DNA of 64,000 nucleotides from Eledone cirrhosa. Taxonomy: Eukaryota. The stretch lies in contig OZ024742.1 of the NCBI GenBank assembly GCA_964016885.1, positions 320,416,001-320,480,000 on the forward strand, given 5' to 3'. The notes below the pieces were generated by a model that worked only from the letters and a program-made list of their open reading frames with translations, was not told where the DNA came from and searched no databases. The translations under genes were made by a program, and so were the position numbers. This document shows positions 12,350 to 47,698 of the stretch, one piece after another; the stretch's first letter is position 1, and the number at the start of each line of letters is the position of its first letter.

Positions 12350-13881
12350 ATCTAGCGATGAATTTTCTCACTTTTATATGTATAAATAAAGTCACACTTC
12401 ATCTCGATCAGAGACAACATTGGGTGTTAAATAAAAACTATGAGAGAAAATTAAAACATGCTTCAATAAGTTTTCATATCTGTTAATAATAATAATGATA
12501 ATATCAAACAGGAACTTATAAACCAGACAAACATAGGTACGTATATATATATATATATGTGTATACACATGTGTGTGTGTGTATATTAAACAGGAGCATC
12601 TGAACAAATGAACATATGTATGCGTGTGTGCACACACACATATATATATACACATACACACATATCACATATATATATATATATATTAGACAACAACAAT
12701 AAGCAACTAACTAAAAGCGTTAATTATGTTCCTGAAGTTTCTACCTTTGACATCCACAAATGCAAATATACAGACACAAACACTCCAACATCCGACACAC
12801 AGGCAGAAAAATATTTGGCTTTCATTCTTTGTGCCAATACATATATATTTATATTGGGTGTATACACATGTAAACATGTTATATATATATGTACATTGGG
12901 TATATACACATGTAAACATGTTATATATATCTATACATGTCAGAACACAGGTTAACTGAGACTGCAAACATGTGTGTGTCTGTGTGTATATATATCAGAA
13001 TGGATTCAGTTAGACCATTACTCTCCAGAGTACTCAATACTTAGAGTAGTAGAGCATTGTTATATGAATGAGTCAGAACTCCCACTCATTCATATAATAT
13101 ATATACACACACACATATATATATATATATATACACAGACAGACACATTGAGCATATTAGACAGTAAACATGTCAAATTTACGTATTTCCCCATAAATAG
13201 AAAAAATGACAAATATCCCTAATCGACTGACAACCCTTAATGGGGGGGGGGGGTCATCAGAGGATATGTACATAAAACAAGCACAAAGAAATACGTAAGT
13301 GAAGGCCTTATATTTATGTATGTTTTTTTGTTGGTCATGATCAAACAGTTAGGGTTGCCCTATAGAAGGGCTCCCTAAATACATACATACACTCCCCTCC
13401 GCCCTCTATATCAGTTGATCTGATACACCTCCTTCCAATCACTGACATCCAAGACCACATTCAGAATAACTAAATGCCATCCACCGGTCTAATAAACCCC
13501 TAATGGTTATATTGTGTCCATTGTTCTGGCTATCCTATTCCAACTGTAGATGGGACCTGATGCCCTCATCCACAGTCTATATTAACCCTTTACCATCTAC
13601 ATTACTCTATATTTACTATTGTATTTTCACAGTAAAGGCTTTACCTCACATAAATATCAAATCTATGAGATTTTGATATTTATTTTGAGAACACTAGCTT
13701 AACATTGGTATGAGTGGCTGGTTACAGCCAGTTTGAACAGAAATAGGTGAGAGAGTTCTGACCATGCACAATGTTCCTGTGTATGATGATATTTAGAAAG
13801 GCTTAACTCTTTAGTATTTACATTACTCTATATTTACTATCGTATTTTCATGGTAAAAACTATATCTATATATATATATAC

Positions 13882-13925
<44 letters not shown>

Positions 13926-13936
13926 ATATATTAATC

Positions 13937-14208
13937 AGGAAGCTCCAACCGCTAAGGTTGTTTTTTTTTTCCGGGTATGTCAATATTTATGTATAAAACA
14001 AATCTGTATTTTATCTGATGAAAGCGCACCATAATTTGCCTTGGTTGCCCTTGAAATATATATAATAAAATAAATATGGTTTTATAAATATAGTTTCCAT
14101 TTATTAATATATTGTGTATTTACTCCACTAACTTGTTGAGTGCTTTATATCAGTTATAACATTTTTTAAGCTTGTTGAATCCCAACAAATTAAATATAAG
14201 CTCTGCAT
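13937..14208 (+). mobile_element. Divergent, non-inverted copy of the hammerhead-bearing TA-associated element (family H1)
   Basis: Aligns by eye to 26870-27107 (tactccac..ttgttgagtgcttt.atatcagttata..cccaacaa). Flanked by (TA)n. Confidence 0.8.
14007..14072 (+). ncRNA. Minimal type I hammerhead ribozyme
   Basis: tattttat-CTGATGA-aagcgcacca..tggttgccctt-GAAA-tatata-ta-ataaaata, with a perfect 8-bp stem I. Confidence 0.8.
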
Positions 14209-14220
14209 ATATATATATAT

Positions 14221-20302: not shown

Positions 20303-20714
20303 AATAATTATTATATTAAATATATTAAAAGGCAGTAAATTGGCATAGTACAAAAGACTTTGAAGTACATGGTGTAGGCTTTTGTGGTCAGAATTCAAAT
20401 CATGCCATGGTCAACTTTGTGTTTATATATATATATATATATATATATAAATGTAAGTATGCATATATACGTACATACATATATGTATACAGACGTACAG
20501 TAGCATGCATATATATATATATATATATATACATATATATATACATATATATATACATATGCATACAGGTACACATACATATATGCACGTATCAGTTTAG
20601 CGGACGCTTATTATAACGCCGCTTTGTTCGTTTGTAAACAAACTGAACAGCCTGAATTTATGCCATACGGTGTTAAGGCAACCATGTCACCTTTTTGTTC
20701 AACACTGACACAGG

Positions 20715-20759
20715 AACGATGTACTAGTTTCAAGCTTGTTAGCTATCATCAGCACCGTT
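20715..20759 (-). ncRNA. Minimal type I hammerhead ribozyme (inverted copy)
   Basis: Reverse complement of 21096-21140. Confidence 0.85.
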
Positions 20760-20994
20760 TACCCATCTGCCAGATAGTTGAACGTTCGAAAGTATATACT
20801 TTCCTTATGAAAATTAACGGCTGAGCAGCCTAATTTGCATATTGAGTGAGTTGAATCGGTAAGGCATACCGAAAACGATAAATTGAAATAAAATGAAAAC
20901 GAAATTTCATTTCTCACTCTTAGTATGGCACTTACTTAAATGTAAGTATGCATGTATACGTACATACATATATGTATACAGACGTACAGTAGCA

Positions 20995-21032
<38 letters not shown>

Positions 21033-21095
21033 TATATACATATGCATACAGGTACACATACATATATGAACGTTCAACTATCTGGCAGATGGGTA

Positions 21096-21140
21096 AACGG
21101 TGCTGATGATAGCTAACAAGCTTGAAACTAGTACATCGTT
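21096..21140 (+). ncRNA. Minimal type I hammerhead ribozyme
   Basis: aacggtg-CTGATGA-tagctaacaagctt-GAAA-ctag-ta-catcgtt. Stem I aacggtg/catcgtt, stem II agct/agct, palindromic CTAG stem III, GUA cleavage triplet. Confidence 0.88.
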
Positions 21141-21305
21141 CCTGTGTCAGTGTTGAACAAAAAGGTGACGTGGTTGCCTTAACACCGTATGGCATAAATT
21201 CAGGCTGTTCAGTTTGTTTACAAACGAACAAAGCGGCGTTATAATAAGCGTCCGCTAAACTGATACGTGCATATATGTATGTGTACCTGTATGCATATGT
21301 ATATA

Positions 21306-21375
<70 letters not shown>

Positions 21376-21486
21376 TGCTACTGTACGTCTGTATACATAT
21401 ATGTATGTACGTATACATGCATACTTACATTTAAGTAAGTGCCATACTAAGAGTGAGAGATGAAATTTCGTTTTCATTTTATTTCA

Positions 21487-21737
<251 letters not shown>

Positions 21738-21787
21738 TCTATATATATAAAATATATATATATATATATATATAAAATATATATATA

Positions 21788-24700
21788 CTACTAGCTGACA
21801 AGTGGGTAGATAAAGTAATCTCAGTGTACAGGGTAAATGCAAGAATCATTAAACTCAGACTAGTCCTGAATAAAACAATTACCACAATAATATCAGCTTA
21901 CGCACCCCAATCGGGGCTGCCAGACGAACTTAATGATAGGTTTTACGAGTCCCTAATGCACACTACTGCTCTAACAGACGACAATGACTTCCTAATCATC
22001 GCAGGAGATTTTAACGGACACGTAGGTAAACACTGCGACGGCTTCAATAGAGTACATGAGGCCATGGAGTTGGCACAAGAAATGAGGAAGGATTCAGACT
22101 TCTAGAATTCTGCGACGCCAATGACATGTCGATATGTAACACAAACTTTAAAAAACCCGACAACCACCTGATCACCTATAGATCAGGGAAGCACTCTAGT
22201 CAGATAGATTTTATCCTCATCAGAGGACGTGACAGATGGACGGTTGTAAACACAAAAGCCTTCCCTAGTGAGGAATGTACATCCCAACATAGCTTAGTTG
22301 TCAGCAACCTCACAGTCAGAACTAGACGAACCTGGAAACAGAGGCCAACCTGGAGAAGAAAGATCTGGAAGCTGAAAAACCCCTCAACCAGTAACAGATT
22401 TAAAGATATTTTACTCAACGCCTACGACAGTAAAGAAGAACAGATAGAGACATTCATTTAGGAACTGGGAGTTCCTAAAAAATAACTTACGAGAGGCGAC
22501 GGATGAGGTCTGTGGCTGGAGTAAGACCTCAAGCAGGAGGAGAGTGACTTGGTGGTGGAACAATAAGGCAGATGAGGCAGTTAAGGCCAAGAGACAGGCA
22601 TGGAAAGAATGGAAGAACGGGGTAGCAGGGTACATTACATAGAGACCAAGAGGGAAGCTAGGCGACAAGTATACTTAGCTAGGAGGGAAGCAGAGGATAG
22701 AAAATTCAAGCATGTTTTGCAACGTGAAGACCAGAAACAGGAGGTGTTCAAGATTGCGAGGCAGTGTGTCAGAGAGAGTTGTGATGTCATTGGAGAGAAG
22801 TGTATCCGGAATGATAAAGGTGAGCTTGCCCTCACAAGTGCTGAGAAGAAAGATGCATGGAAGAGTCATTATGATAGATTACTAAATGAGGAGAATGCAT
22901 GGGAAGAAGAGACCCTACCCCAAGTAGACCCTATAGAGGGGTCAGCAAGGCAATCAAAGATATGAAGATGGGGAAGGCAACCGGTCCATCGGGTATAGCT
23001 GCCGAGATGCTGAAGGCATCTGGGTCTGTAGGTCACACTATAACCACACGTATCGTTAACCAGGTAATACTAGAGGGGGCCATACCAAAAGATTGGTGCA
23101 GTGGCATCATTGTCAACTGCTACAAAGGTAAAGGCGATGCACTAGATAGAGGAAACTATAGAGGTATAAAGTTGATGGACCAGGTCATGAAAGTAACAGA
23201 AAGAGTTATAGCACAGCTGATTAGGGACCGGGTGAAACTAGACGAGATGCAATTTGGGTTTGTACCAGGGAAAGGCACCACTGATGCCCTCTTCCTTGTG
23301 AGGCAATTACAGGAAAAGTACGTAGCTAAAAGTAAGCCACTCTACTTGGCATTTGTCGACCTTGAGAAAGCCTTTGACAGAGTTCCACGTTCTGTAATCT
23401 GGTGGGCTCTTAGAAAACTAGGAGTAGGTGAATGGCTTGTGAAAGCGGTACAAGCCATGTATAGGGGAGCAGTCAGCAAAGTTAGGATTAGCAATGAGTA
23501 TAGCGAGGAATTTAGCGTACAGGTTGGGGTCCACCAGGGCTCTGTTCTTAGCCCTCTCCTGTTCATCATAGTCCTGCAGGCAATAACGGAGGAGTTTAAG
23601 ACCGGATGCCCATGGGAACTCCTGTATGCTGATGACCTCGCACTCATAGCTGAATCTATGGTAGAACTAGAGAATAAATTCCAAACTTGGAAGCAGGGAC
23701 TAGAAAGAAAGGGTCTCAAAGTCAACATGACAAAGACTAAGGTCCTTGTAAGTAGACGAGAAAACAGAACCCAGATCCCCTCAGGGAAATGGCCTTTCTC
23801 AGTATGTAGGAAAGGTGTAGGTAGGAACTCCATTCTCTGCCCCAAATGCAAACAATGGGTACACAAGAGATGTAGCGGGATCTCAGGAAGCTTAATTAAG
23901 AATGTAGGATTCACATGCAGCAGCTGTGCTGAGACAGCAAGCAGCAAACAGCCACAGGAAACAAGTACCACCAATCTCTGGGAGGGCCCTGTAGAAACAG
24001 TAGACAGCTTCTGCTACCTAGGTGACCGAAAGGGGATGGAAGAAGTTTAGGGAACTACTACCACTGCTAGCTGCAAAAGGCTTCTCCTCAGAATGAAAGG
24101 CAGACTGTATGATGCATGTATCCGAACAGCGATGTTGCATGGTAGTGATACCTGGGCGCTGAAGGTGGAAGACTTACGGAGATTAGAGAGAAACGAAGCC
24201 TGCATGCTCCGATGGATGTGTAACAGTAATATACGTGAACGATAAAGCATAAATGAATTGACAGAGAGACTGAGCATAAGAGGAATCAAATGCTGTGTGC
24301 AGGAGAGGCGGTTGCGGTGGTATGGACATGTGATGCGTATGAAGGATGACAGCTGCATAAAAAGGTGCAGAGCACTAGAAGTTGATGGTAACCGCGGAGT
24401 GGGGAGACCAAGATGACCTGGGATGAGGTGATAAAAGCCGACCTTACCCAATTACACCTCTCAAAGACAATGACACACAACCGTGACTTCTGACGTCACG
24501 CAGTAATACAGAGTACCCGACCTCCCATGGGTACAAGCTGAAGCATATAGACAATATGCCCCCACGCCCCCCACCGCAAGGTGGTCGTGGAGGTGCCACG
24601 GCAAAAAAGCACCCAGCCCACACTGTAAAGTGGACGTGTAGGCGCCACGAAAAAGCACCCAGCACTCACTGTAAATGAGGTTGGTGTTAGGAGGGCATCC

Positions 24701-24842
24701 AGCTGTAGAAATCAAGCCAAATCAGTTCCTGTATGAGCAAGGCATGGTCAGCCGACCAGACACTGCCCACAACAGCACAACCCGTCTAACCCATGCTAGC
24801 GTGGAAGAACGGACGTAAAACGGTGATGATGATGATGATGAT
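21788..24842 (+). mobile_element. RTE family A LINE, 5'-truncated within the endonuclease and frameshifted
   Basis: EN motifs (SAYAPQ, GDFNGHVG, SQIDFIL), RT motifs (QFGFVPG, FVDLEKAFD, GVHQGSVLSPLLF, LYADD), PHD finger, (GAT)n tail. Confidence 0.97.
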
Positions 24843-24878
24843 ATATAAAATATATATATAAAATATATATATATATAT

Positions 24879-24948
<70 letters not shown>

Positions 24949-25000
24949 TATATATGTATATATATAAAATATATATATATATAAAATATATATATATATA

Positions 25001-25775
25001 AGGAAAGAATTAAAAATAAGAGGGATCAGATGTTGTTTACTCGAGAGAAGGCTACGTTGGTACGGTCACGTGATGCGCGTGAAAGACGACAGCTGTATAA
25101 CAAAGTGCAGGGCAATAAAGATAGACGGTAGCCACGGAATAGGCAGACCCAGAAAAACCTGGGACGACATGATAAATTCCCACCTCACATGCTTACACCT
25201 CTCCAAGACAATGTCACTGGACCGAGACCTTTGGCGGTACTCAGTAATAGAGAAGGCCCGCCATACCTAAATACAACGTAAAAACCTACTACAGTCAGTA
25301 GGCATCTCTATCAAAACACACCCCCGTCCCACCACCTCCACCCCATCCACACCGCCCCTTTCAATGTAAAGTTATGTTGGTGCCACAACATCCAGGCCGA
25401 AACAAATGAGATCGTGTAGGTGTCACGACAAAAAACACACAGTCCACGCTGTAATGTGGCCGTGTAGGCAACACGTAAAAACCTCCCAGCCCCACACTGT
25501 AAATGTGGTTGGTGATAGGAAGGGCATCCAGCTGTAGAGAACACGCCGGACAGTCCACACTGTAATGTGGCCGTGTAGGCAACACGGTAAAAACTTCCCA
25601 GCCCCACACTGTAAATGTGGTTGGTGTTAGGAAGGGCATCCGGCTGCAGAAAACCCGCCAGACAGTCCTATGCGAGCAAGACAACCACTCTTGCCTCAAG
25701 TGGAAAATCCCCGTCCAAACCCATGTAAGCGTGGGACACGGACGCTAAACCTGATGATGATGATGTTGATGATGA
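25001..25775 (+). mobile_element. RTE family B, 3' fragment
   Basis: RRLRWYGHVMR...GRPRKTW, family-B 3' UTR with an internal duplication, (GAT)n tail. Confidence 0.92.
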
Positions 25776-25965
25776 TATATAAAATATATATATATATATA
25801 TATATAAAATATATATATATATAAAATATATATATATATAAAATATATATATATATATATATAAAATATATATATATATATAAATATATATATATATAAA
25901 ATATATATATATATATATATAAAATATATATATATATAAAATATATTTATATATATATATATAAA

Positions 25966-25997
<32 letters not shown>

Positions 25998-26047
25998 TAT
26001 ATATATATATATAAAATATATATATATATATATATAAAATATATATA

Positions 26048-26078
<31 letters not shown>

Positions 26079-26130
26079 AAATATATATATATATATATAT
26101 AAAATATATATATATATAAAATATATATAT

Positions 26131-26556
26131 CATCATCATCATCATCATCATCACCGTTTTACGTCCGTTCTTCCACGCTAGCATGGGTTAGACGGGTTGT
26201 CCTGTTGTGGGCAGTGTCTGGTCGGCTGACCATGCCTTGCTCATACAGGAACTGATCTGGCTTGATTTCTACAGCTGGATGCCCTTCCTAACACCAACCT
26301 CATTTACAGTGAGTGCTGGGTGCTTTTCGTGGCGCCTACACGTCCACTTTACAGTGTGGGCTGGGTGCTTTTTTGCCGTGGCACCTCCACGACCACCTTG
26401 CGGTGGGGGGGGGGGGGCATATTGTTTATATGCTTCAGCATGTACCATGGGAGGTCGGGTACCCTGTATTACTGCGTGACGCCAGAAGTCACGGTCGTGT
26501 GTCATTGACTTTGAGAGGTGTAGTTGGGTAAGGTCGGCTTTTATCACCTCATCCCA
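26131..26556 (-). mobile_element. RTE family A, 3' fragment
   Basis: (CAT)n tail, family-A 3' UTR, WDEVIKADLTQL. Confidence 0.92.
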
Positions 26557-26638
26557 ATATATATATATATATATATAAAATATATATATATATATAAAAT
26601 ATATATATATATATATATAAAATATATATATATATATA

Positions 26639-27107
26639 CAATATTAAATAAATGGAAAACTATATTTATAAAACCATATTTATTTCATTATATATATTTC
26701 GGGGATATCATATTAACAATATGCTATGCCTTCATCAGACAAAATACAATATAAACAGTTTTATAGATAAATATATTCGACTTACCGTAATAAACATCAA
26801 CTTCATTTGAAGAGGTTTACGCTAGCAGTAATAAACATCAACTTCAAATGAAGTTGATGTTTATTACGGTATGTCGAATATATTTATCTATAAAACTGTT
26901 TATATTGTATTTTGTCTGATGAAGGCATAGCATATTGTTAATATGATATCCCCGAAATATATATAATGAAATAAATATGGTTTTATAAATATAGTTTTCC
27001 ATTTATTTAATATTGTAAATATACTCCAAATATTTGTCGAGTGCTTTTATATCAGTTATAAATATTTACTAGTTGTAACCCAACAATTTTAAATATAACT
27101 TTACATG
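26639..27107 (+). mobile_element. Palindromic hammerhead element, family H1, copy 1
   Basis: Inverted arms at about 26639-26806 and 26848-27015, plus a ~90-nt unpaired 3' tail. Hammerheads at 26908-26973 (+) and 26681-26746 (-). Confidence 0.85.
26908..26973 (+). ncRNA. Minimal type I hammerhead ribozyme
   Basis: tattttgt-CTGATGA-aggcatagcatatt gtt aatatgatatcccc-GAAA-tatata-ta-atgaaata. Stem I is 8 bp with two G-U pairs. Confidence 0.8.
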
Positions 27108-27146
27108 TATATATATATATATATAAAATATATATATATAAAATAT

Positions 27147-27197
<51 letters not shown>

Positions 27198-27600
27198 TAT
27201 ATATATATATATAAAATATATATATATATATAAAATATATATATATATATAAAATATATATATATATATATATAAAATATATATATATATATATATAAAA
27301 TATATATATATATATATATATAAAATATATATATATATATAAAATATATATATATATATATAAAATATATATATATATATATAAAATATATATATATATA
27401 TATATAAAATACATATATATATATATATATAAAATATATATATATATATATAAAATATATATATATAAAATATATATATATAAAATATATATATAAAATA
27501 TATATATATATATATATATAAAATATATATATATAAAATATATATATATATATATATAAAATATATATATATATAAAATATATATATATATATATATAAA

Positions 27601-27632
<32 letters not shown>

Positions 27633-27747
27633 TATATATATATAAAATATATATATATATATATAAAATATATATATATATATATATAAAATATATATAT
27701 ATATATAAAATATATATATATATATATAAAATATATATATATATATA

Positions 27748-28216
27748 CAATATTAAATAAATGGAAAACTATATTTATAAAACCATATTTATTTCATTAT
27801 ATATATTTCGGGGATATCATATTAACAATATGCTATGCCTTCATCAGACAAAATACAATATAAACAGTTTTATAGATAAATATATTCGACTTACCGTAAT
27901 AAACATCAACTTCATTTGAAGAGGTTTACGCTAGCAGTAATAAACATCAACTTCAAATGAAGTTGATGTTTATTACGGTATGTCGAATATATTTATCTAT
28001 AAAACTGTTTATATTGTATTTTGTCTGATGAAGGCATAGCATATTGTTAATATGATATCCCCGAAATATATATAATGAAATAAATATGGTTTTATAAATA
28101 TAGTTTTCCATTTATTTAATATTGTAAATATACTCCAAATATTTGTCGAGTGCTTTTATATCAGTTATAAATATTTACTAGTTGTAACCCAACAATTTTA
28201 AATATAACTTTACATG
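27748..28216 (+). mobile_element. Palindromic hammerhead element H1, copy 2 (identical by eye to copy 1, offset 1109 bp)
   Basis: Hammerheads at 28017-28082 (+) and 27790-27855 (-). Confidence 0.85.
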
Positions 28217-28543
28217 TATATATATATATATATAAAATATATATATATATATATATATAAAATATATATATATAAAATATATATATATATATATATATAA
28301 AATATATATATATATATATATAAAATATATATATATATATATATAAAATATATATATATATATATATAAAATACATATATATATATATATATAAAATATA
28401 TATATATATATATAAAATATATATATATAAAATATATATATATAAAATATATATATAAAATATATATATATAAAATATATATATATAAAATATATATATA
28501 AAACATATATATATATATATAAAATATATATATATATATATAT

Positions 28544-28584
<41 letters not shown>

Positions 28585-28763
28585 TATATATATATAAAAT
28601 ATATATATATATATATATAAAATATATATATATATATATATAAAATATATATATATATATATAAAATATATATCTATATATAAAATATATATTTATATAT
28701 ATAAAATATATATATATATATATAATATATATATATATATATAAAATATATATATATATATAT

Positions 28764-28822
<59 letters not shown>

Positions 28823-28824
<2 letters not shown>

Positions 28825-29126
28825 AGGCACATGGCTTAGTGGTTAGAGCATCGGCCTGGCAATCGAAAGGTTGTGAGTTCAATTCTCAGACCGGGTGATG
28901 TGTTGTTTCCTTGAGCAAGACACTTTATTTCACATTGCTCCAGTTTACTCAGCTGTAGAAATGAGATTTGCAAAGTGGTTGTGGAGGTGCCACGGCAAAA
29001 AAGCACCCAGCACTCACTGTAAATGAGGTTGGTGTTAGGAAGGGCATCCAGCTGTAGAAATCAAGCCAGAATCAGTTCCCGTCCCACCCTTGCAAGCAGG
29101 GAAAAGTGGACATAAAATGAAATGAT
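28823..29126 (+). mobile_element. Composite SINE: tRNA head/core + RTE-A UTR module + RTE-C 3' tail
   Basis: A box tggcttagtgg and B box gagttcaattc. The middle matches the RTE-A 3' UTR; the end cccgtcccacccttgcaagcagggaaaag matches the RTE-C terminus. Confidence 0.88.
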
Positions 29127-29278
29127 ATAAAATATATATATATATATATAAAATATATATATATATATATATATAAAATATATATATATATATAAAAAAT
29201 ATATATATATATATAAAATATATATATATATATATAAAATATATATATATATATAAAATATATATATATATATATAAA

Positions 29279-29310
<32 letters not shown>

Positions 29311-29408
29311 TATATATATAAAATATATATATATATATATATAAAATATATATATATATATAAAATATATATATATATATATAATATATATATATATATA
29401 TAAAATAT

Positions 29409-29444
<36 letters not shown>

Positions 29445-29645
29445 AAATACATATATATATATATATAAAATATATATATATATATATATAAAATATATAT
29501 ATATATATATAAAATATATATATATATATATAAAATATATATATATATATATATAAAATATATATATATATATTTATAAAATATATATATATATATATAT
29601 AAAATATATATATATATATATAAAATATATATATATAAAATATAT

Positions 29646-29677
<32 letters not shown>

Positions 29678-29721
29678 AAATATATATATATATATATAAA
29701 ATATATATATATATATATAAA

Positions 29722-29755
<34 letters not shown>

Positions 29756-29827
29756 TATATATAAAATATATATATATATATATATAAAATATATATATAT
29801 ATATATATAAAATATATATATATATAT

Positions 29828-32800
29828 CATCATCATCATCATCATCATTTTACGTCCGCTTTTCCCTGCTTGCAAGGGTGGGACGGGTCTTATTCAGCAC
29901 AGCATCTCTCCGCTCGTCACGGTCCCTCGTCATCTCCACCGTGAGCTTCAATGATCTGAGGTCTGTTCTCACCACCTCCGCCCATGTTTTTCGTGGTCTA
30001 CCTCTACCACGTCTTCCTTCAACTGGCATTTCCTGGCACTTCTTCACCCATCGGTCATCCTCCATGCGCATCACATGTCCATACCACCTCAGTCTCCTCT
30101 CCCGTATTCTACATTCTATCCCTCTCAGACACAGTTTCTCTCTCAACACATTTATGCTGGGTCGTTCACGCACATTTACACTGCACATCCAACGGAGCAT
30201 GCTTGCCTCATTTCTCTCCAGCCGTCGCATATCCTCTGCGGTTGCTGCCCATGTCTCACTACCATGCAGCATCGCGCTCCTCACACAGGCATCATACAAC
30301 CGGCCTTTCGTACGCAGGGAGAAACCCTTCTTCGTCAACAGAGGAAGCAGCTCCCTAAACTATTTCCAACCCGTCCTTATTCTAGATACTATGGCCTCGG
30401 AACACCCTCCTCCCATGCTAATCTGATCTCCTAGGTACCGGAAGCTATCCACCACTTCTATAGCGCCCTCTCGCATTTGAAATATGTGTCTATCAGTGCG
30501 ACTTCTACTGTCTAATTTCCCTGTACATCTACTGCATACATATTTCTCCCTACCTGTTAGTTTGCCTGCTATCCCGCTACATCTCTTGTGTACCCAGGAC
30601 CTGCATTGTGTGCATTTTATAGAATTTATGCCAGTTCCTTTTCTGCATATCGAACATGGCCATTTCCCTGACGGAATCAGGGGTTTGTCCTCTTTTCTAC
30701 TCATCAACACTTTTGTCTTAGCTAGATTTACTCTCAGTCCTCTTGCTTCCAACTGCTGTTTCCATAGCCGGAATTTATTCTCTAGCTCCTCTACTGATTC
30801 TGCCATAAGAGCCAGATCGTCAGCATAGAGAAGTTCCCATGGACAGCCAGTCTTAAACTCCTCTGTTATGGCTTGGAGGACTATAATGAACAAGAGCGGG
30901 CTGAGGACCGAACCCTGATGTACTCCTACTTGTATCTGGAATTCCTCACTAAACTCCATTCCTACCCTGACTTTACTGAGAGTACCTCTGTACAAATTTT
31001 TCACTGTCCTCACAAGCCATTCCTCAACACCCAGCTTCCTTAGGGACCACCAGATGACAGATCGGGGTACCCTATCAAAGGCCTTCTCTAGGTCAACAAA
31101 GGCTAAGTATAGTGACTTATTCTTCTCTAAGAACCTCTCTTGCATTTGTCTCACCAAGAAGAGGGCATCTGTTGTACTCTTCCCAGGCACAAAACCAAAC
31201 TGCATCTCATCTAGTTTGACCCTTTCTCTAATTAGTTGTGCTAAAATCCTTTCTGCCACTTTCATAACCTGATCTATCAGTTTTATACCCCTATAATTGC
31301 TCTTCTCCAAAGCATCCCCTTTACCTTTGTAGCAATTTATGAGAATACTGCTGCACCTGTCTTTGGGTATGACACCACCATATATAGCCTGATTGATGAT
31401 GCGTGCAACCAGTTTAGTGCCTACGTCCCCTGATGCCTTCAGCATCTCAGCAACTATTCCCGATGGTCCGGCCGCCTTACCATTTTTCATTTCCCTAATC
31501 GCCTCTTGGACCCTATATTCGTCAATCTCAATAGCTGGTCCCTCTGTCGGATCTACCAAGGGTAATTTCTCTCTCTCCCATTCGTTCTCCACATTCATCA
31601 GTCTCTCATAATGACATTTCCAGGCCTCCTTTTTCTGGTCATTCGTGACACTAAGTACACCGGCATCATCCCGGACACATTTATCTCCAACAACATCCTG
31701 ATTTGCATTGACACACTGCCTTGCAATGTGGAACACCGCACGCCTCTTATCTTCCCGTCGCAGAACATTGGCAAACCTCCTACTCTCTGCCTCCCTGCGT
31801 GCTAAGTACACCTGACGTCTAGCTTCTCTCTTAGTGACTGTATATTCTTCCCTACTCCCACCCTTTTTCCAAGCCTTCCATGCTAGTCTTTTGTCTCTAA
31901 TAGCCTTATCTACTGTGCTGTTCCACCACCAGGTCACTCTCTGTCTGGTTGGAGCTCTGCTCCAGCCACAGGTTTCATCAGTAGCCTGCAGCAAGTTGTC
32001 ACGTAAGAACTTCCAGTTATTATCTATGTCATACGTCTCTATAAACAATATGCCCCCCCCCCCCCCCCACCGCAAGGTGGTCGTGGAGGTGCCACGGCAA
32101 AAAAGCACCCAGCCCACACTGTAAAGTGGACGTGTAGGCGCCACGAAAAAGCACCCAGCACTCACTGTAAATGAGGTTGGTGTTAGGAAGGGCATCCAGC
32201 TGTAGAAATCAAGCCAGATCAGTTCCTGTATGAGCAAGGCATGGTCAGCCGACCAGACACTGCCCACAACAGGACAACCCGTCTAACCCATGCTAGCGTG
32301 GAAGAACGGACGTAAAACGGTGATGATGATGATGATGATGATACGTCTCTAAATCGTCTTCTTTTTCGTCATATACATCTTGAAGGGCTTTCCTAAATTT
32401 GAATTTTAGTGAAAGGTCTTTTAGCTTCCAGACCTTTCTTCTCCACACCTTCCTATATGTCTCATTCCATCTCTTGCTTACTGAGATATCACTAACAACT
32501 AACCTATGTTGTGGGGTACATTCTTCCCCAGGGTATGCCTTGGTATTAGACACTATCTGCCTGTCCCGCTGCCTAACTAGCAGGAAGTCAATCTGGCTTA
32601 TGTGCTCACCAGATTTGTAGGTTATTAGGTGATTGGCAGGTTTCTGGAAGTTTGTGTTGCAAATAGTCAATGTACCCGCATCACAAAATTCAAGAAGTCT
32701 CACTCCTTCTTCATTTCTTGAACCGTAACCGTGCCCACCATGTACCCCAGTGTAACCATCCTGGAGCTGTCCAACATGACCATTGAAGTCTCCTGCTAGC

Positions 32801-33421
32801 ATAACGATGTCTCCGTCCTCTGTCATTGTGGTTGTTTGCAAAAGTTGCTCATAAAAGCAGTCTTTCTCATCTTTGCCTAGGCCTGCTTGGGGAGCATAGG
32901 CCGAGATGATTGTCCGTAGTCTCCTACCTACAACTAATCTAAGCTTAATTATTCGATTACTAACTCGAACTACCTCTATTGTCTTATTGATCCATTTCTC
33001 AGCCAGGAAAATGCCTACTCCCCCTAACCCATCATCCTTACCTACCCAGAATAGCTTATAGCTAAGACGCTTGCCTACGACTAGTCTTGCAGAGGCACCT
33101 CTCCATCTCACCTCTTGCACGCAGCACACATCCACCTGCCTTCTCTCCAGCATCTCCGCTATTTCAGCAGATCTACCTCTGAGAGTGCCAACATTAAGTG
33201 TTGCAACTCTGAGATGCGACGTCTTCATATTTTTTTCGATACTGTTTTGTTGCTGTGCTGATAAGCTTTTTGGCATTGATACACTGGTTGGATGCCCTTC
33301 CTAACACCAGCGCCACTTTACAGCATGGACTGGGTGCTTTTATTTGTGCCACCAGCACTAGAGAGGATGTCTTACTAGACTCAAGTGCCCTCTCTACTTC
33401 TCCATTTTACAGCATGGTCAT
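29828..33421 (-). mobile_element. RTE family C LINE, essentially full length (5' UTR, EN-RT-PHD ORF at about 33276-29850), with one nonsense codon and one nested insertion
   Basis: ATLNVGTL, CVQEVRW, GDFNGHVG, LYADD, C4HC3 finger. In-frame TAG at 30360-30362; (CAT)n tail. Confidence 0.97.
32042..32340 (+). mobile_element. RTE-A 3' UTR fragment nested in RTE-C
   Basis: 11-bp TSD atacgtctcta at 32031-32041 and 32341-32351; (GAT)n tail. Confidence 0.95.
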
Positions 33422-33612
33422 TAAAAAAAAAAAAAAAAAAAAACTTATTGACACGACTCACACACCAATACTCATGCATACAAACCACAACCACACATAC
33501 CAACACTCATTCATGCATACAATCACACACACCACTCATATATATATATAAAAAATATATATATATATATATAATAAATAAATAACAAAGAACGCTTATA
33601 GCATATGCATAT

Positions 33613-33670
33613 CTTTACTTGCTAACATTGTTTCATCCGCACTATAAGTGGGACTCATCAGAGCATAAAG
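33613..33670 (-). ncRNA. Hammerhead ribozyme motif, family H3
   Basis: Minus strand: ctttatgct-CTGATGA-gtcc cac ttata gtg c ggat-GAAA-caatg-tt-agca ag taaag. Confidence 0.7.
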
Positions 33671-34228
33671 GTTAATTACATACCATACAGGCAATAACAA
33701 ATCCAAGACATTGAAGAATGAAAGGTAATAATAGACGATAGAGGATAAGAATAAAAATAAAAATAAAAGTAAAAATAAAAATAAAAATAAAAATAAGGGG
33801 TGCTATCAGTCACAGTTGGGCGGGGTGCTGTCAACATATAGTTACATACAAGCATACACATGGATAAGAGAACAGACAAGAGTAGACACATGGATAAGAG
33901 AACAGACAAGAGTAGATAAGATAATGGGATTAGGTAAGAGTAGGTAAAAAATAGGTAAAAAATAGGTGAAAAACAGACTTATAATATATATAAAAAGAAA
34001 TACAAAGAAATACATAACAAACTTACATATAAAATATAAAATATAGGGTAAGGAATGAGATAAAATAATATAAAATTAAAAATTAAAAATTATATACATA
34101 GAACATAATATAGTATAATCGTAAAATAAGATAAAATAAGGTAAACTAAAATCAAATAACATAGACTAAATTAAAATAATATAATATAAGATATAATTAA
34201 ATGTATAATTAAATGTAATTAAATGTAA

Positions 34229-34260
<32 letters not shown>

Positions 34261-34335
34261 AAATTAAATAAATAAATAAAATTTAAATTTAAATTTTAAA
34301 ATTTTTAAATTAAAATTCAAATTTTAAATTTAAAT

Positions 34336-34371
<36 letters not shown>

Positions 34372-35554
34372 ATGGAGTCAAGTAAGTAAATAAATAAAAT
34401 TAGATAACATGAAATGAAATAAAATAAAATGAAATAAAGTAAATTGAGATAAGATATATATTTTTTTAGAATATATCTCTTGAATATATCAGGGGCCCAC
34501 GAAGGCACTAAATGTCACAGTTATGTGTATCACTTGACCAATTTTTTAAAATATATTTCTTGAAAACATCAGGGGCCCACGAAGGCACTAAGTGTCACAG
34601 TCACCAGTATCACTTGACCATTGCAAGGCAATGGAGGCGTCCCAGGTTGGGCAGTCTCGAAAGTTCACTCGAAAGTCATGGGTGTGCATTCACACAGTTG
34701 AGCGGTGGGGTAATCACAAACCGGTTCACACACGGGCAGGAGTCAAATGGTCAGAGAGAGGTGCATCGAAGGAGGTAGAAGAATTCACATGCATTAGCAA
34801 GCGAGGTGAGGTTAAAGCAAGCAGACACAGTTGTAGCGCATACAAAATATATATAAAAAGACAGAAGATATATAAAAAAAATAGCTTCAAGAGCCATTAA
34901 GTCACCGCATTGGGACATCACAAGATTGTACACATCAATATGTTCAGCACGTATATGCACGTATACACACCACATGCATATGCAGAGACGGTATACATAT
35001 ATATATATATATATATTTTTTTTTTTTTATATATACACAGACACATATAACCACCTACACCCATACACATATAAATGTATACACGGACACACACGCACAC
35101 ACACACATATATATATATATATAAAATATATATATATATATAAAATATATATATATATATATAAAATATATATATATATATAAAATATATATATATATAT
35201 ATAAAATATATATATATATATAAAATATATATATATATATATAAAATATATATATATATATATAAAATATATATCTATATATAAAATATATATATATGTA
35301 TATATAATATATATATATATATATAAAATATATATATATATATAAAATATATATATATATATAAAATATATATATATATATAATATATATATATATATAT
35401 AATATATATATATATATATAAAATATATATATATATATAAAATATATATATATATATAAAATATATATATATAAAATATATATATAAAATGTATATATAT
35501 ATATATATAAAATATATATATATATATATATAAAATATATATATATATATATAT

Positions 35555-35597
<43 letters not shown>

Positions 35598-35619
35598 TAT
35601 ATATATATAAAATATATAT

Positions 35620-35651
<32 letters not shown>

Positions 35652-35696
35652 AAATATATATCTATATATAAATATATATATATATAAAATATATAT

Positions 35697-35797
<101 letters not shown>

Positions 35798-35955
35798 TAT
35801 ATATATATAAAATATATATATATATATATATATAAAATATATATATATATATATATAAAATATATATATATATATATAAAATATATATATATATATATAT
35901 AAAATATATATATATATATATATAAAATATATATATATATATAAAATATATATAT

Positions 35956-35987
<32 letters not shown>

Positions 35988-36104
35988 AAATATATATATT
36001 TATATATATAAAATATATATATATATATATAAAATATATAAAATATATAAAATATATATATATATACATAAAATATATATATATATAAAATATATATATA
36101 TAAA

Positions 36105-36138
<34 letters not shown>

Positions 36139-36158
36139 TATATATATAGAATATATAT

Positions 36159-36190
<32 letters not shown>

Positions 36191-36233
36191 AAATATATAT
36201 ATATATATAAAATATATATATATATATATATAA

Positions 36234-36280
<47 letters not shown>

Positions 36281-36338
36281 TATATATATATAAAATATAT
36301 ATATATATATATATCAAATATATATATATATATATATA

Positions 36339-36540
36339 CGATATTAAATAAATGGAAACTATATTTATAAAACCATATTTATTTCATTATATATATTTCA
36401 GGGATATCATATTAACAATATGTTATGCCTTCTTCAGACAAAATACAATATAGACAGTTTTATAGATAAATAGATTTGACATACCGTTCAACATCGACTT
36501 GTATTTGAAAAAGTTGATTTGGCAGTGAAAAATTGTAAAC

Positions 36541-36571
<31 letters not shown>

Positions 36572-38285
36572 AGGAAAGAAAGGAAGAAAACGTAGAAAAA
36601 GAAGAAAAAGAAGAAATGCATGCAACAAAATAGAGAGATGGAAAGATAGATAAAGAGAAGAACTTCATGTAAAGAAACAGAGAGAGATATATAGAGAGAG
36701 GAAATAGATAGAGATAGATATATATAGAGAAAAGTAGGTAGTTGAACGACGTATCAATGATACATTTATTTATTTAGCTCTAGTATTAATGTAAGGGAGA
36801 TATAAGTGGTTAGGAAAGAAACCAGCCGTTATATAGAGAGAAAAATGAAAAGTAACCAGACATAGGCGAGGCTGAATTTAAAAACCCTATGTTTTAATGT
36901 AGAAATATTAGTTCGTATAAAAACCAGGCACTATAATGTAAATATCAGTATTCCTGAATGAGACACGTATCTATAATGTGTGAAAAGTAATGATCTTATG
37001 TCTAGTTTTAAAAATTCATATGTTTATATGATAACTACAAACATCGATGTGAATTTACGTGATCAACTCTGCAAACCCCTATTTCACACGGAGAACATTC
37101 TCATTGTGCTATAAAAATTTAAATATACATATATGTGTATATATACACATATATATAGAGTCTATATTAATTTTAACAATACTATTCTTGTCTTTACTCT
37201 ACATGATTATGTATCAAGCAGAAATAGAGGACAGATTTCAATATATTAATAAAAATATCAGAAACAAAAACAAAAAATAATAATAATAATAATAATAATA
37301 AACAAATAAATAAAATAGAAAACTATAGATAGAAACTAAAGACAAGAATAGTATTGTTAAAATTAATATAGACTCTATATATATGTGTATATATACACAT
37401 ATATGTATACTTAAATTTTTATAGCACAATGAGAATGTTCTCCGTGTGAAATAGGGGTTTGCAGAGTTGATCACGTAAATTCACATCGATGTTTGTAGTT
37501 ATCATATAAACATATGAATTTTTAAAACTAGACATAAGATCATTACTTTTCACACATTATAGATACGTGTCTCATTCAGGAATACTGATATTTACATTAT
37601 AGTGCCTGGTTTTTATACGAACTAATATTTCTACATTAAAACATAGGGTTTTTAAATTCAGCCTCGCCTATGTCTGGTTACTTTTCATTTTTCTCTCTAT
37701 ATAACGGCTGGTTTCTTTCCTAACCACTTATATCTCCCTTACATTAATACTAGAGCTAAATAAATAAATAAATAAATGTATCATTGATACGTCGTTCAAC
37801 TACCTACTTTTCTCTATATATATCTATCTCTATCTATTTCCTCTCTCTATATATCTCTCTCTGTTTCTTTACATGAAGTTCTTCTCTTTATCTATCTTTC
37901 CATCTCTCTATTTTGTTGCATGCATTTCTTCTTTTTCTTCTTTTTCTTCGTTTTCTTCCTTTCTTTCCTTCTTTCTTTCTTTCTTTCTTTCTGTTTACAA
38001 TTTTTCACTGCCAAATCAACTTTTTCAAATACAAGTCGATGTTGAACGGTATGTCAAATCTATTTATCTATAAAACTGTCTATATTGTATTTTGTCTGAA
38101 GAAGGCATAACATATTGTTAATATGATATCCCTGAAATATATATAATGAAATAAATATGGTTTTATAAATATAGTTTCCATTTATTTAATATCGTAAATA
38201 TACTCCAAATACTTGTTGAGTGCTTTTATATCAGTTATAAATATTTACTAGTTGTAACCCAACAATTTAAATATAACTTTCCATG
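36339..38285 (+). mobile_element. Long palindromic hammerhead element H1, copy 3 (about 860-bp arms)
   Basis: Arms 36339-37196 and 37337-38195, ~140-nt spacer, ~90-nt 3' tail. Hammerheads at 38088-38153 (+; CTGAAGA..tGAAA) and 36380-36445 (-). Confidence 0.9.
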
Positions 38286-38775
38286 TATATATATATATAT
38301 ATATAAAATATATATATATATATATATAAAATATATATATATATATAAAATATATATATATATATATAAAATATATATATATATATATAAAATATATATC
38401 TATATATAAAATATATATATATATAAAATATATATATATATATATAATATATATATATAAAATATATATATATATATAAAATATATATATATATATATAA
38501 TATATATATATATATATAAAATATATATATATATATATGATATATATATATATATATATATAAAATATATATATATATATATATGAAATATATATATAAA
38601 ATATATATATATATATATATAAAATATATATATATAAAATGTATATATAAAATGTATATATATATATAAAATATATATATATATATATAAAATATATATC
38701 TATATATAAAATATATATATATATAAAATATATATATATATATATAATATATATATATATATATAAAATATATAT

Positions 38776-38809
<34 letters not shown>

Positions 38810-38819
38810 AAATATATAT

Positions 38820-38854
<35 letters not shown>

Positions 38855-38858
38855 AAAT

Positions 38859-38934
<76 letters not shown>

Positions 38935-39226
38935 TATATATAAAATAAATATATATATATATAAAATATATATATATATATAAAATATATATATATATAT
39001 ATATAAAATATATATATATATATAAAAATATATATATATATAAAATATATATATATATATATAAAATATATATATATATAAAATATATATATATATATAT
39101 ATAAAATATATATATATATAAAATATATATATATATATATATATAAAATATATATATATATATATATATAAAATATATATATATATAAAATATATATATA
39201 TATATATATAAAATATATATATATAT

Positions 39227-39265
<39 letters not shown>

Positions 39266-39281
39266 TATATATAAAATATAT

Positions 39282-39324
<43 letters not shown>

Positions 39325-39451
39325 TATATATATATAAAATATATATATATATATATAAAATATATATATATAAAATATATATATATATATATAAAATATA
39401 TATATATATATATATAAAATATATATATATATATATATAAAATATATATAT

Positions 39452-39523
<72 letters not shown>

Positions 39524-39585
39524 TATTATATATATATATTTTATATATATATATATTTATTTTATATATATATATATATTTATTT

Positions 39586-39617
<32 letters not shown>

Positions 39618-39656
39618 ATATATATATTTATTTTATATATATATATATATTTATTT

Positions 39657-39702
<46 letters not shown>

Positions 39703-39824
39703 TTTTTATATATATATATATTATATATATATTTTATATATATATATTATATATATATATATATATATATTTTATATATATATTTATATATTATATATAT
39801 ATATATATATATATTTTATATATA

Positions 39825-39860
<36 letters not shown>

Positions 39861-39978
39861 ATATATATATATATTATATATATATTTGATATATATATAT
39901 TATATATATATATATATATATTTTATATATATATATATATTATGTATATATATATATTATATATATATATATATATTT

Positions 39979-40012
<34 letters not shown>

Positions 40013-40013
40013 A

Positions 40014-40434
40014 CAATATTAAATAAATGGAAAACTATATTTATAAACCATATTTATTTCATTATATATATTTCGGGGATATCATATTAACAATATGCTA
40101 TGCCTTCATCAGACAAAATACAATATAAACAGTTTTATAGATAAATATATTCGACATACAAAATGAAGTTGATGTTTATTACGGTATGTCGAATATATTT
40201 ATCTATAAAACTGTTTATATTGTATTTTGTCTGATGAAGGCATAGCATATTGTTAATATGATATCCCCGAAATATATATAATGAAATAAATATGGTTTTA
40301 TAAATATAGTTTTCCATTTATTTAATATTGTATTTAATATTGTAAATATACTCCAAGTATTTGTCGAGTGCTTTTATATCAGTTATAAATATTTACTAGT
40401 TGTAACCCAACAATTTTAAATATAACTTTACATG
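40014..40434 (+). mobile_element. Palindromic hammerhead element H1, copy 4
   Basis: Same left end and tail as copies 1-3 but a different inversion junction. Hammerhead at 40223-40288 (+), with an inverted copy at about 40055-40120. Confidence 0.85.
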
Positions 40435-40525
40435 TATTATATATATATATATATTTTATATATTATATATATATATATATTATATATATATATATATTTT
40501 ATATATTATATATATATATATATTT

Positions 40526-40559
<34 letters not shown>

Positions 40560-40662
40560 ATACATATTTATATATATATATATTTTATATATATATATAT
40601 ATATATATTTTATATATATATATATATATTTTATATATATATATATATATATATTTTATATA

Positions 40663-40694
<32 letters not shown>

Positions 40695-40732
40695 TTTATA
40701 TATATATGTTATATATATATATATATATATTT

Positions 40733-40809
<77 letters not shown>

Positions 40810-40895
40810 TTTATATATATATATATATTATATATATACATTTCATATATATATATATATATTTTATATATATATATATACATTTTATATATATA

Positions 40896-40935
<40 letters not shown>

Positions 40936-40941
40936 TATATA

Positions 40942-41026
<85 letters not shown>

Positions 41027-41072
41027 TATATATATATTTTATATATATATATATATATTATATATATATATA

Positions 41073-41112
<40 letters not shown>

Positions 41113-41118
41113 TATATA

Positions 41119-41184
<66 letters not shown>

Positions 41185-41187
41185 ATA

Positions 41188-41244
<57 letters not shown>

Positions 41245-41347
41245 ATATATATTTTATATATATATATATATAAAATATATATATATATTTTATATATATA
41301 TATATATTTTATATATATATATATACATTTTATATATATATATATAT

Positions 41348-42333
41348 GTCTATAGAAATAGTGGACAGCTTACCTGGGCGATAAAATCAGCAGTGGGGGA
41401 GGGTGCTCTGAAAGTACTGTAGCTAGAGTCAGAACTGGTTGGAAAAAGTTCAGAGAGCTTATACCACTATTAGCTGCTAAAGGGTTCTCCCTAAAAATGA
41501 AAGGCAGGTTGTACGATGCCTGCATACGAACAGCCATGTTGCATGGCAGTGAGACCTGGGCATTGTGTGCAGAGGATATACGCAGACTAGAGAGGAACGA
41601 AGCTTGCATGCTCCGCTGGATGTGTAACAGTAATATACGTGAACGGCAAAGCATAAACGAACTAAGGAAAAAATTAGAGATAAGAGGGATCAGATGTTGT
41701 TTACTCGAGAGAAGGCTACGTTGGTATGGACACGTGATGCGCATGAAAGTCGATAGCTGTATAACAAAGTGCAGGGCAATAAAGATAGACGGTAGTCACG
41801 GAATAGGCAGACCTAGAAAAACCTGGGACGAGCTGATAAACTCCGACATCACACACTTACACCTCTCCAAGACAATGTCACTGGACCGAGACCTTTGGCG
41901 GTACTCAGTAACAGAGAAGACCCGCCTTACCTAAATATATAGTAAAACCTACTCCAGCCAGTAGGCATCTCTAACAAAATACACCCCCGTCCCACCCCCA
42001 CCACCCCCACCCCATCCACACCACCCCGTTCTATGTAAAGTTATGTTGGTGCCGCGCCATCGAGGCCGAAACAAATGAGATCGTGTAGGTGTCACGACAA
42101 AAAACACACAGTCCACGCTGTAATGTGGCCGTGTAGGCAACACGGTAAAAACCTCCCAGACCCACACTGTAAATGTGGTTGGTGTTAGGAAGGGCATCCA
42201 ACTGTAGAAAACCTGCCAGACAGTCCTATGCGAGCAAGACAATCACTCTTGCCTCAAGTGGGACTACCCCCGTCCAAACCCATGCAAGCGTGGAACACGG
42301 ACGTTAAACGTTGATGATGATGATGATGATGAT
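41348..42333 (+). mobile_element. RTE family B, 5'-truncated
   Basis: GGGCSESTVARVRTGWKKFREL..GRPRKTW, family-B UTR, (GAT)n tail; (TA)n flanks. Confidence 0.93.
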
Positions 42334-44199: not shown

Positions 44200-44399
44200 N
44201 NNNNNNNNNNNNNNNNNNNNNNNNNNNNNNNNNNNNNNNNNNNNNNNNNNNNNNNNNNNNNNNNNNNNNNNNNNNNNNNNNNNNNNNNNNNNNNNNNNNN
44301 NNNNNNNNNNNNNNNNNNNNNNNNNNNNNNNNNNNNNNNNNNNNNNNNNNNNNNNNNNNNNNNNNNNNNNNNNNNNNNNNNNNNNNNNNNNNNNNNNNN
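44200..44399. other. Assembly gap (200 N)
   Basis: Run of N. Confidence 1.
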
Positions 44400-47075: not shown

Positions 47076-47132
47076 AACACATGTATAAATAAATATATAT
47101 ATATGCATACATATACCTAATCTTTTCTACAG

Positions 47133-47207
47133 GAACGCTACAGTTCTTTTGATTCTGGGATTGGAAAAAAAATTGCTGAATGTAATACAAGTTTTGAGGA
47201 ATTGGAA
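47133..47207 (+). CDS. xylA: Xylose isomerase (class II), penultimate exon
   Basis: ctaatcttttctacag|ERYSSFDSGIGKKIAECNTSFEELE|gtaagt (75 nt, phase 0/0). Matches the class II xylose isomerase C-terminal pattern ERYxSFDSGIGxxI. Confidence 0.88.
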
Positions 47208-47698
47208 GTAAGTATACAACTGGCTTCAAATTATTTAAAAGAGTTTTCAACACTGTAAATACATTTTGATAATCATCATCATCAAGATATATTCAAGTCA
47301 TTTAAATTCTTTGATAAGTAAGGTATCTCTATTAAACCACAATTGGCACCATATCAGCTCTACATAGAATGCCATGGAGTATTTCCTCCAGCTCTTTTAT
47401 ATTCTGAGTTAAAATCTGCTGCGGTCCATTTGAGTGGTAGACTTAGGGTTAGGTTTAACATGCTAGCGTGGAAAATGGATGTTAAACGATGATGATGATG
47501 ATGACTACCACCTGCCTTGCTGCCTTTAGTACTCAAGTTTGAGGATACCTTTCTTCTTCCTTCCCACCAGTCACGGAGGCCTTAAAAAATGTCATGGGTA
47601 CCCTCTTCTCCCTGACTAAATTGTAAAAGACTCATCATACTCAGTTGTTATGTTATTACAATCCAATATACTCTAATATATTTTGTTCTCTGCTTCAG

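Follow-up and report, generated by a model that had tools for sequence, protein, structure and literature searches.

Paired stem changes in a hammerhead motif of a truncated, probably Penelope-like repeat of Eledone cirrhosa

A stretch of 64,000 nt from the genome of Eledone cirrhosa (hereafter, the window) holds several copies of a hammerhead motif, one of which, at 14007-14072, departs from its relatives in the sequence of its stems. An earlier note on this DNA read the differences as compensatory changes that preserve the fold, took them as a sign of selection on RNA structure and concluded that the ribozymes are functional. The locus thus raises two questions: whether the changes are indeed paired and, if so, on which RNAs the selection acted, those of the copies that now sit in the genome or those of the mobile parents from which they descend.

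A hammerhead motif in nine window copies

The window is animal-like and rich in repeats, with long (TA)n runs, LINE-type frames carrying RVT_1 and PHD, and one gap of 200 N. Within it, 14007-14072 is a type I hammerhead motif composed of CUGAUGA, a 31-nt stem II region, GAAA and the palindrome AUAUAUAU. Its parts are as follows.

13992-13999 (+): outer helix, 5' strand, pairing with 14079-14086
14007-14014 (+): stem I, 5' strand, tattttat
14015-14021 (+): catalytic core box CUGAUGA
14022-14052 (+): stem II region, 31 nt
14053-14056 (+): core box GAAA
14056-14063 (+): stem III palindrome AUAUAUAU, giving 2 bp in a monomer and 8 bp when two copies pair
14064 (+): H17, with the predicted cut 3' of it
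14065-14072 (+): stem I, 3' strand, ataaaata
14079-14086 (+): outer helix, 3' strand

The strands of stem I are present as the earlier note had quoted them, both here and at 26908-26915/26966-26973. Stems I and II close the junction, the open end lies in stem I (8 bp in the 14015 copy), and stem III arises, in computation only, through the dimer palindrome AUAUAUAU. The stem II region comprises a short basal helix, a conserved C/C(C) internal loop and a 10-nt variable loop (14032-14041), with a variable bulge at 14045/14046; its pairs 14026-14048 and 14027-14047 are changed on both sides relative to the other window types. For the canonical contact between loop 1 and loop 2 there is no 4-bp stem II with a short loop, and the C/C(C) internal loop occupies the place of loop 2. 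The outer helix is unchanged among the window types in 8/8 pairs. Cleavage is predicted 3' of A14064, the A of an AUA triplet, which is numbered H17 after the consensus for Penelope-like elements (PLEs) printed in PMC4209133.

A core-box scan, BLAST and a covariance model agreed on nine copies: 14015+, 26916+, 26738-, 28025+, 27847-, 38096+, 36437-, 40231+ and 40112-. The covariance model yielded no tenth copy in the window, its next scores falling on the opposite strands of known copies and on TA-rich runs. From stem I to stem I, three sequence types are present (14015 alone, one with six copies and one with two), and the type I core CUGANGA...GAAA...NUH, with 12 conserved positions, is found in 9/9. 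The core boxes had been described as invariant. This is so for GAAA and TATATATA, identical in all nine window copies, but CTGATGA is found in 7/9, the remaining two (38096+ and 36437-) having the CTGAAGA that had been recorded for a third copy, and in the wider family A14060G varies TATATATA.

A hammerhead descriptor that demands the core, a stem I of at least 5 pairs, a folded stem II and NUH gave nine matches in the window, all of one family, against a mean of 0.04 per shuffle (100 shuffles of 500-nt blocks, four of them with one match). Sequence boxes alone are not evidence of a hammerhead, since 23 box matches in metagenome contigs lack the stems and were dismissed as chance: of the 22 that were parsed, none combined a stem I of at least 4 pairs with a closed stem II, the remaining one contains ambiguous bases, and the covariance model scored no metagenome match at the motif and two weak ones elsewhere. 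The family pattern had 0 matches in viral and prokaryote genome contigs. An inverted pair within the window (arms 20478-20787 and 21068-21377, 95% alike) also carries CTGATGA..GAAA boxes, at 20728-20752 (-) and 21103-21127 (+), without evident stem I, and the descriptor gives no match there.

No Rfam family reached its gathering score anywhere in the window, and around 14015 and 33661 no Rfam hammerhead appeared even at E 10. Because a simpler second motif at 33661 was missed as well, the Rfam hammerhead models appear to lack coverage of these variants. This second motif (33661-33620, minus strand) is an unrelated, single-copy, hammerhead-like one with CUGAUGAG, a short stem II, GAA and a GUU triplet; the descriptor missed it too. 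Its stem III is of a 4-bp type and near-palindromic, its insertion extends from about 33575 upward and adjoins the (TA)n run 33538-33574, no ORF was found upstream, and its layout resembles Hydra-clade motifs in the compared part of the PMC8557442 supplement.

Hammerheads are carried by the pseudo-LTRs (pLTRs) of metazoan PLEs, among them 'atypical' variants with a small palindromic helix III, which show weak cleavage in vitro (Cervera and De la Pena 2014, PMC4209133). The window motif fits the consensus published there, CUGANGAH / G..C / GAAAN-palindrome-NUH. It differs from the motifs of that paper that were compared in its longer, interrupted stem II region (31 nt), its 8-bp stem I with an outer helix, its 8-nt palindrome of pure AU and its AUA triplet, and it was not among the supplement motifs included in the comparison. 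A literature search returned nothing on the activity of A10.1-U11.1 or AUA hammerhead variants.

Truncated insertions in (TA)n runs

The 14015 copy belongs to one of five insertions of similar build, listed here with its flanks and its sisters.

13885-13919: (TA)n microsatellite, left side of the insertion, the likely target
13921-13935 (-): 15-nt inverted piece, the reverse complement of 14103-14117
13936-14117 (+): forward 5'-truncated body
14118-14207 (+): tail of about 90 nt
14208-14220: (TA)n, right side of the insertion
26639-27107 (+): sister insertion, motifs 26738- (inverted arm) and 26916+ (forward copy), with tail
27748-28216 (+): exact 469-nt repeat of 26639-27107, motifs 27847- and 28025+
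36340-38285 (+): longest sister insertion, arms of about 860 nt, 98% alike, motifs 36437- and 38096+
40014-40437 (+): sister insertion, motifs 40112- and 40231+

In 5/5 insertions the order is (TA)n, an inverted 5'-truncated piece beside the 5' end, a forward piece, the tail of about 90 nt and (TA)n again, so that the microsatellite target stands on both sides without a poly(A) tail. The 15 inverted nucleotides at 13921-13935, which the earlier note had missed, share their starting point, the body/tail junction, with the long inverted arms elsewhere (155-860 nt, 98-99% identity). The tail is present on the five forward copies and on 0/5 inverted pieces.

Ten public sequencing runs contain part of the stretch, and contigs of four were compared, one run per organism (7089 contigs in X1; 65, 4 and 5 in the three others), those less than 80% alike being left out. 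That thousands of different contigs fall on 277 bases speaks for a large repeat family, depth not being a copy number. Many of them lack the tail as the inverted arms do and pass from 14119 into (TA)n (54 contigs of X1 and one of X4), and read depth falls more than tenfold between 14072-14081 and 14122-14131. One X4 contig continues upstream of 13936 with (CT)n-rich sequence.

Several details of the insertions deserve record. Three of the four distinct forward copies (13936, about 26842 and about 40160) start 71-79 nt upstream of the core box, and the fourth (38096) extends some 760 nt further upstream; the shared start may be a preferred stop or a template start. The 10 nt that open the inverted remnant (13921-13930) occur once more in the (TA)n run, 41 nt upstream at 13880-13889, and in the 40231 forward copy 12 nt are duplicated in tandem exactly where body and tail meet (40311-40340). 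Three hairpins, of which one has an AC-rich loop, are shared by the tails of all types (14118-14207, 27017-27107 and 38196-38285); they are no more stable than those of shuffles. The longest insertion, 36340-38285, has low-complexity frames only and no protein family. The insertions 26639-27107 and 27748-28216, identical over 469 nt, lie 1109 nt apart, and the (TA)n run behind each carries an identical TAC interruption, the pair being either a recent tandem duplication or an assembly artefact. From 21490 to 41350, AAAA breaks the (TA)n runs every 15-25 nt, with TTTT instead from about 39525; a genuine satellite that includes an inversion might explain this, as might a pattern of long-read error.

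This build has been described for PLEs, in which an inverted, 5'-truncated copy adjoins the 5' end, the tail is optional, insertion is biased towards (TA)n and the hammerheads lie near the 3' end; in one Hydra-clade consensus both strands carry the motif (Craig et al. 2021, PMC8557442). With the endonuclease-bearing (EN+) PLEs of that account the window insertions share (TA)n targets (Hydra clade; Neptune and Naiad for target bias), the inverted 5'-truncated copy, the optional tail, a hammerhead near the 3' end and a near-palindromic stem III; they differ in a tail of about 90 nt against the 30-40 nt given there. An exact-word search over the wrapped lines of the consensus set in its supplement gave, for seven short motifs of the present family (H1), one incidental match in a Naiad ORF only. 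An octopus Naiad with half a core is listed in the same supplement, and a link to Naiad was rejected, neither the 3' end of Naiad_Obim nor the seven short motifs having a match in that exact-word search.

The Poseidon element of Anolis carolinensis (PAc), in the account of Frangieh et al. (2024, PMC11167929), has a tail tied to two internal start sites of reverse transcription and a ribozyme that requires protein and is dispensable for insertion in vitro. The window insertions resemble it in that a tail delimited by two end points follows the hammerhead, and in tail hairpins with an AC-rich loop, which in PAc stand at the reverse-transcription start. The ORF of PAc starts at stem II, whereas the core-box ATG in the window closes after 16 codons in the 14015 copy and after 3 in the 26916 type.

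In all likelihood, 13921-14207 is a 5'-truncated high-copy repeat, probably the pLTR end of an EN+ PLE or a non-autonomous derivative of one, with any cleavage predicted for the tandem or dimer form of the parent. We infer the PLE membership of the hammerhead family and claim no more for it, since no reverse transcriptase of the family was found. Neither a PLE reverse transcriptase nor a GIY-YIG domain occurs in 118 window frames scanned (20 + 98, the scan of 98 leaving out 130 further frames in LINE-rich stretches). The reverse transcriptases of the window are RVT_1 + PHD with an Exo_endo_phos frame, and belong to another, LINE-type family. All window copies are truncated, and a full-length parent with flanking pLTRs is absent from the 64,000 nt. 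A PHD finger follows the reverse transcriptase in the same LINE-type frame at 22899-24050, 30360-33276, 43133-44473, 45667-47253, 48966-50009, 54950-55729 and 56977-58443, and the GC-rich frames at 50262-53274, with zinc knuckle, DUF7047 and RVT_3 (RNase H-like) matches, are probably another retroelement.

A different origin was considered, in which the unit is the monomer of a tandem non-LTR retrozyme spread by circular RNA and rolling circle, and not a truncated pLTR. The size of about 270 nt, the low GC, the type I hammerhead and the want of coding capacity would suit it, as they match the small, non-coding, perhaps dimer-dependent elements of Cervera and De la Pena (2020, PMC7229834), and there is one exact two-unit tandem, at 26639 and 27748. 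Yet the units of that tandem carry inverted arms and are separated by 640 nt of (TA)n-type sequence, and the window, whose units stand hundreds of bases of (TA)n apart, has none of the head-to-tail arrays of retrozymes. Nor do the insertions end at the predicted cleavage site; one copy has about 760 nt of additional upstream sequence, and inverted arms and tail are PLE features. We hold such an origin to be quite unlikely; the two kinds of element have themselves been proposed as related in a preprint (bioRxiv 10.64898/2026.07.22.740005). Our literature search found no account of this hammerhead family, which Repbase and Dfam may well list.

Paired changes between types and among reads

Over the 31 nt of stem II the types align without gaps and fold into hairpins of -6.0, -4.9 and -5.5 kcal/mol, in agreement with the statement of the earlier note that this stem differs in sequence yet pairs; these folds are no more stable than those of shuffles (z -0.37, -0.46 and -0.84). 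The compensatory changes that it announced are found in stem II, as three pairs changed on both sides, but not in stem I, where there are two one-sided changes from A-U to G-U. Double-sided changes are limited to the seven core-proximal pairs of stem II, in which 6/14 positions differ between 14015 and the 38096 type and form three matched pairs (G-C to A-U, A-U to G-C and U-A to C-G). In simulation, six random substitutions form three pairs with a probability of 0.0067 if all are transitions and 0.0009 if two-thirds are (full range, 0.00025-0.0067). Three double pairs were reached by 10/500 column shuffles, a control that ignores relatedness and uses three window types, and structures slid out of place gave 0-1.

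Other parts of the fold are less constant. Held in register, 4/6 pairs of the distal stem II of other copies are broken in the 14015 copy, which makes a 3-bp helix of its own in a shifted register, and a 5-bp helix that extends stem I in other copies is lost in it (4-nt gap). The A-T pair said to close stem II had to be given up, as it becomes A.C in 6/9 copies; an alternative register, with one extra unpaired A after the core, is closed by G-C, G.U and A-U in the three types and is the register reported for PLE hammerheads in the compared part of PMC4209133. Core invariance among the window types alone has a P of about 0.08 at 19% divergence. With all window types, RNAalifold prefers a fold in which the 5' strand of stem I pairs with the GAAAUA core and one pair covaries; with three types, this off fold may be chance or AU-richness.

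The public reads carry a larger sample of the family, in contigs so short that linkage of changes is mostly invisible. Across the four runs, 14 positions between 13992 and 14086 have substitutions of at least 3%: 0/12 core, 2/50 paired and 12/33 unpaired positions (Fisher 3.5e-5). Both varied paired positions, 14048 C>T and 14068 A>G, yield G.U. X1 alone gives 10/33 unpaired against 1/62 core or paired (7.6e-5). Position 14046 was assigned to the bulge after the table had been seen; under a worst-case assignment, with 14046 and all of stem III taken as paired, the counts are 10/27 against 4/68 (p 3.7e-4), and without loop II 4/17 against 4/68 (p 0.047). Substitutions thus favour unpaired positions over core and stems, but the comparison that the earlier note had set, core against flank, shows no significant difference with the tail as flank (0/12 against 11/89, p 0.35).

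Within the palindrome, A14060G makes up 27% of X1 depth; a dimer carrying it would form G.U pairs (duplex -2.2 against -3.2 kcal/mol). The loose ends of 52 X1 contigs before 14048 have a majority sequence that forms a further stem II (agreement 0.69, median length 14, far part thin), with U-A at pair 6 and, once joined to the reference, G-C at pair 5; taken at face value, it would read as an intermediate between window types.

These observations bear on whether the paired changes could be a by-product at the DNA level, arising when one arm of a quasi-palindrome serves as template for the other in repair or strand switching, without any selection on RNA. The element readily makes inverted repeats, and the three double changes lie close together and split only one type from the other two. 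Templating, however, would erase the mismatches at stem II positions 4 and 8, which persist in all three types; the G.U intermediate at 14048 points to stepwise change, as does the loose-end variant with one double change and not the other; all five one-sided changes at paired or dimer-paired positions are wobbles, tolerated only in RNA (P 0.03 if transitions are random); and the unpaired core is likewise spared. We therefore consider this origin very unlikely. Selection on the RNA fold is supported at the level of the family, and strengthened by the avoidance of core and stems by read substitutions.

Parent RNAs and inserted copies

The inference of the earlier note thus stands for the fold, through the three double changes and the read variation, and does not carry over to the function of the genomic copies. 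Common variants of a repeat family would have been selected in the parents before insertion, and in 8/9 copies the motif falls within inverted arms, which would base-pair across it, so function in place does not follow. The covariation, seen among only three independent types in the window, is most likely a record of selection on mobile parent RNAs, not of the function of inserted copies; it is attributed to the parents and not to the 14015 copy because the latter has no tandem partner, its nearest same-strand partner being 12.9 kb off.

Folding energies, which omit core and tertiary contacts, put the strand-swapped dimer at -20.6 kcal/mol, against -4.0 for the active monomer and -8.0 for two active monomers. 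The active monomer lies 3.7 (14015), 5.3 and 4.3 kcal/mol above the free minimum in the three types, and the strand-swapped double hammerhead 1.9 (14015), 6.5 and 4.5 kcal/mol above the dimer minimum. Free folding of the 26916 and 38096 types favours inactive pairing. The 26639 insertion folds as one long duplex over the motif, and the 13921 insertion leaves its motif free.

A mechanism can be proposed on these grounds. In the parent elements, tandem transcripts would bring two motifs together, their AUAUAUAU palindromes would form an 8-bp stem III between them, and the resulting double hammerhead would cut after AUA, the protein of the element probably helping. Selection on these parent RNAs would have produced the covariation. 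The segment 13921-14207 was likely reverse-transcribed into a (TA)n run, and the inserted 14015 copy would be a passive relic, left with a 2-bp stem III alone.

The strongest claim for the copies themselves is that 14015 and its sisters are active ribozymes under host selection, for example by cutting a host transcript that runs through the copy. Alone among the nine, 14015 has an inverted piece (15 nt) that does not reach the motif, and its fold survives in that of the whole insertion; its core and stems are intact, and its type comes nearest to the active dimer in energy. Nevertheless, its stem III has 2 bp and its active monomer lies 3.7 kcal/mol above the minimum; a change at 13991 private to this copy (T in 99% of family depth) breaks an outer-helix pair; its neighbours on the two sides are a microsatellite and a LINE fragment; and descent from selected parents explains its conservation. 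We give host selection little credence, regard function of the 14015 copy as unlikely, and predict that on its own it would cut itself poorly.

As an alternative to the passive relic, the family might be a mass-amplified PLE derivative whose hammerhead acts as a conserved two-state switch. The 5' strand of stem I would pair either with its proper partner or, in the off fold that RNAalifold prefers, with the GAAAUA core, and the active state would be reached only through AUAUAUAU pairing between transcripts or through binding of the reverse transcriptase. This we judge improbable; if it were true, copies scattered over the genome could cleave each other's RNAs in trans, and those of the host as well. 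The flanking (TA)n-AAAA satellite was considered as a further target of such cutting and dropped, no NUH triplet being seen in register by eye.

The locus offers a motif that Rfam misses, and it shows neither a new mechanism nor a host function. It is a clean case of a known pattern, in which PLE hammerheads are kept by selection on RNA structure even though, in PAc, the ribozyme is dispensable for insertion in vitro. With its great size, its several subfamilies, its G.U intermediates and its dimer palindrome of pure AU, the family is a usable natural data set for the role of the hammerhead in the transposition of these elements.
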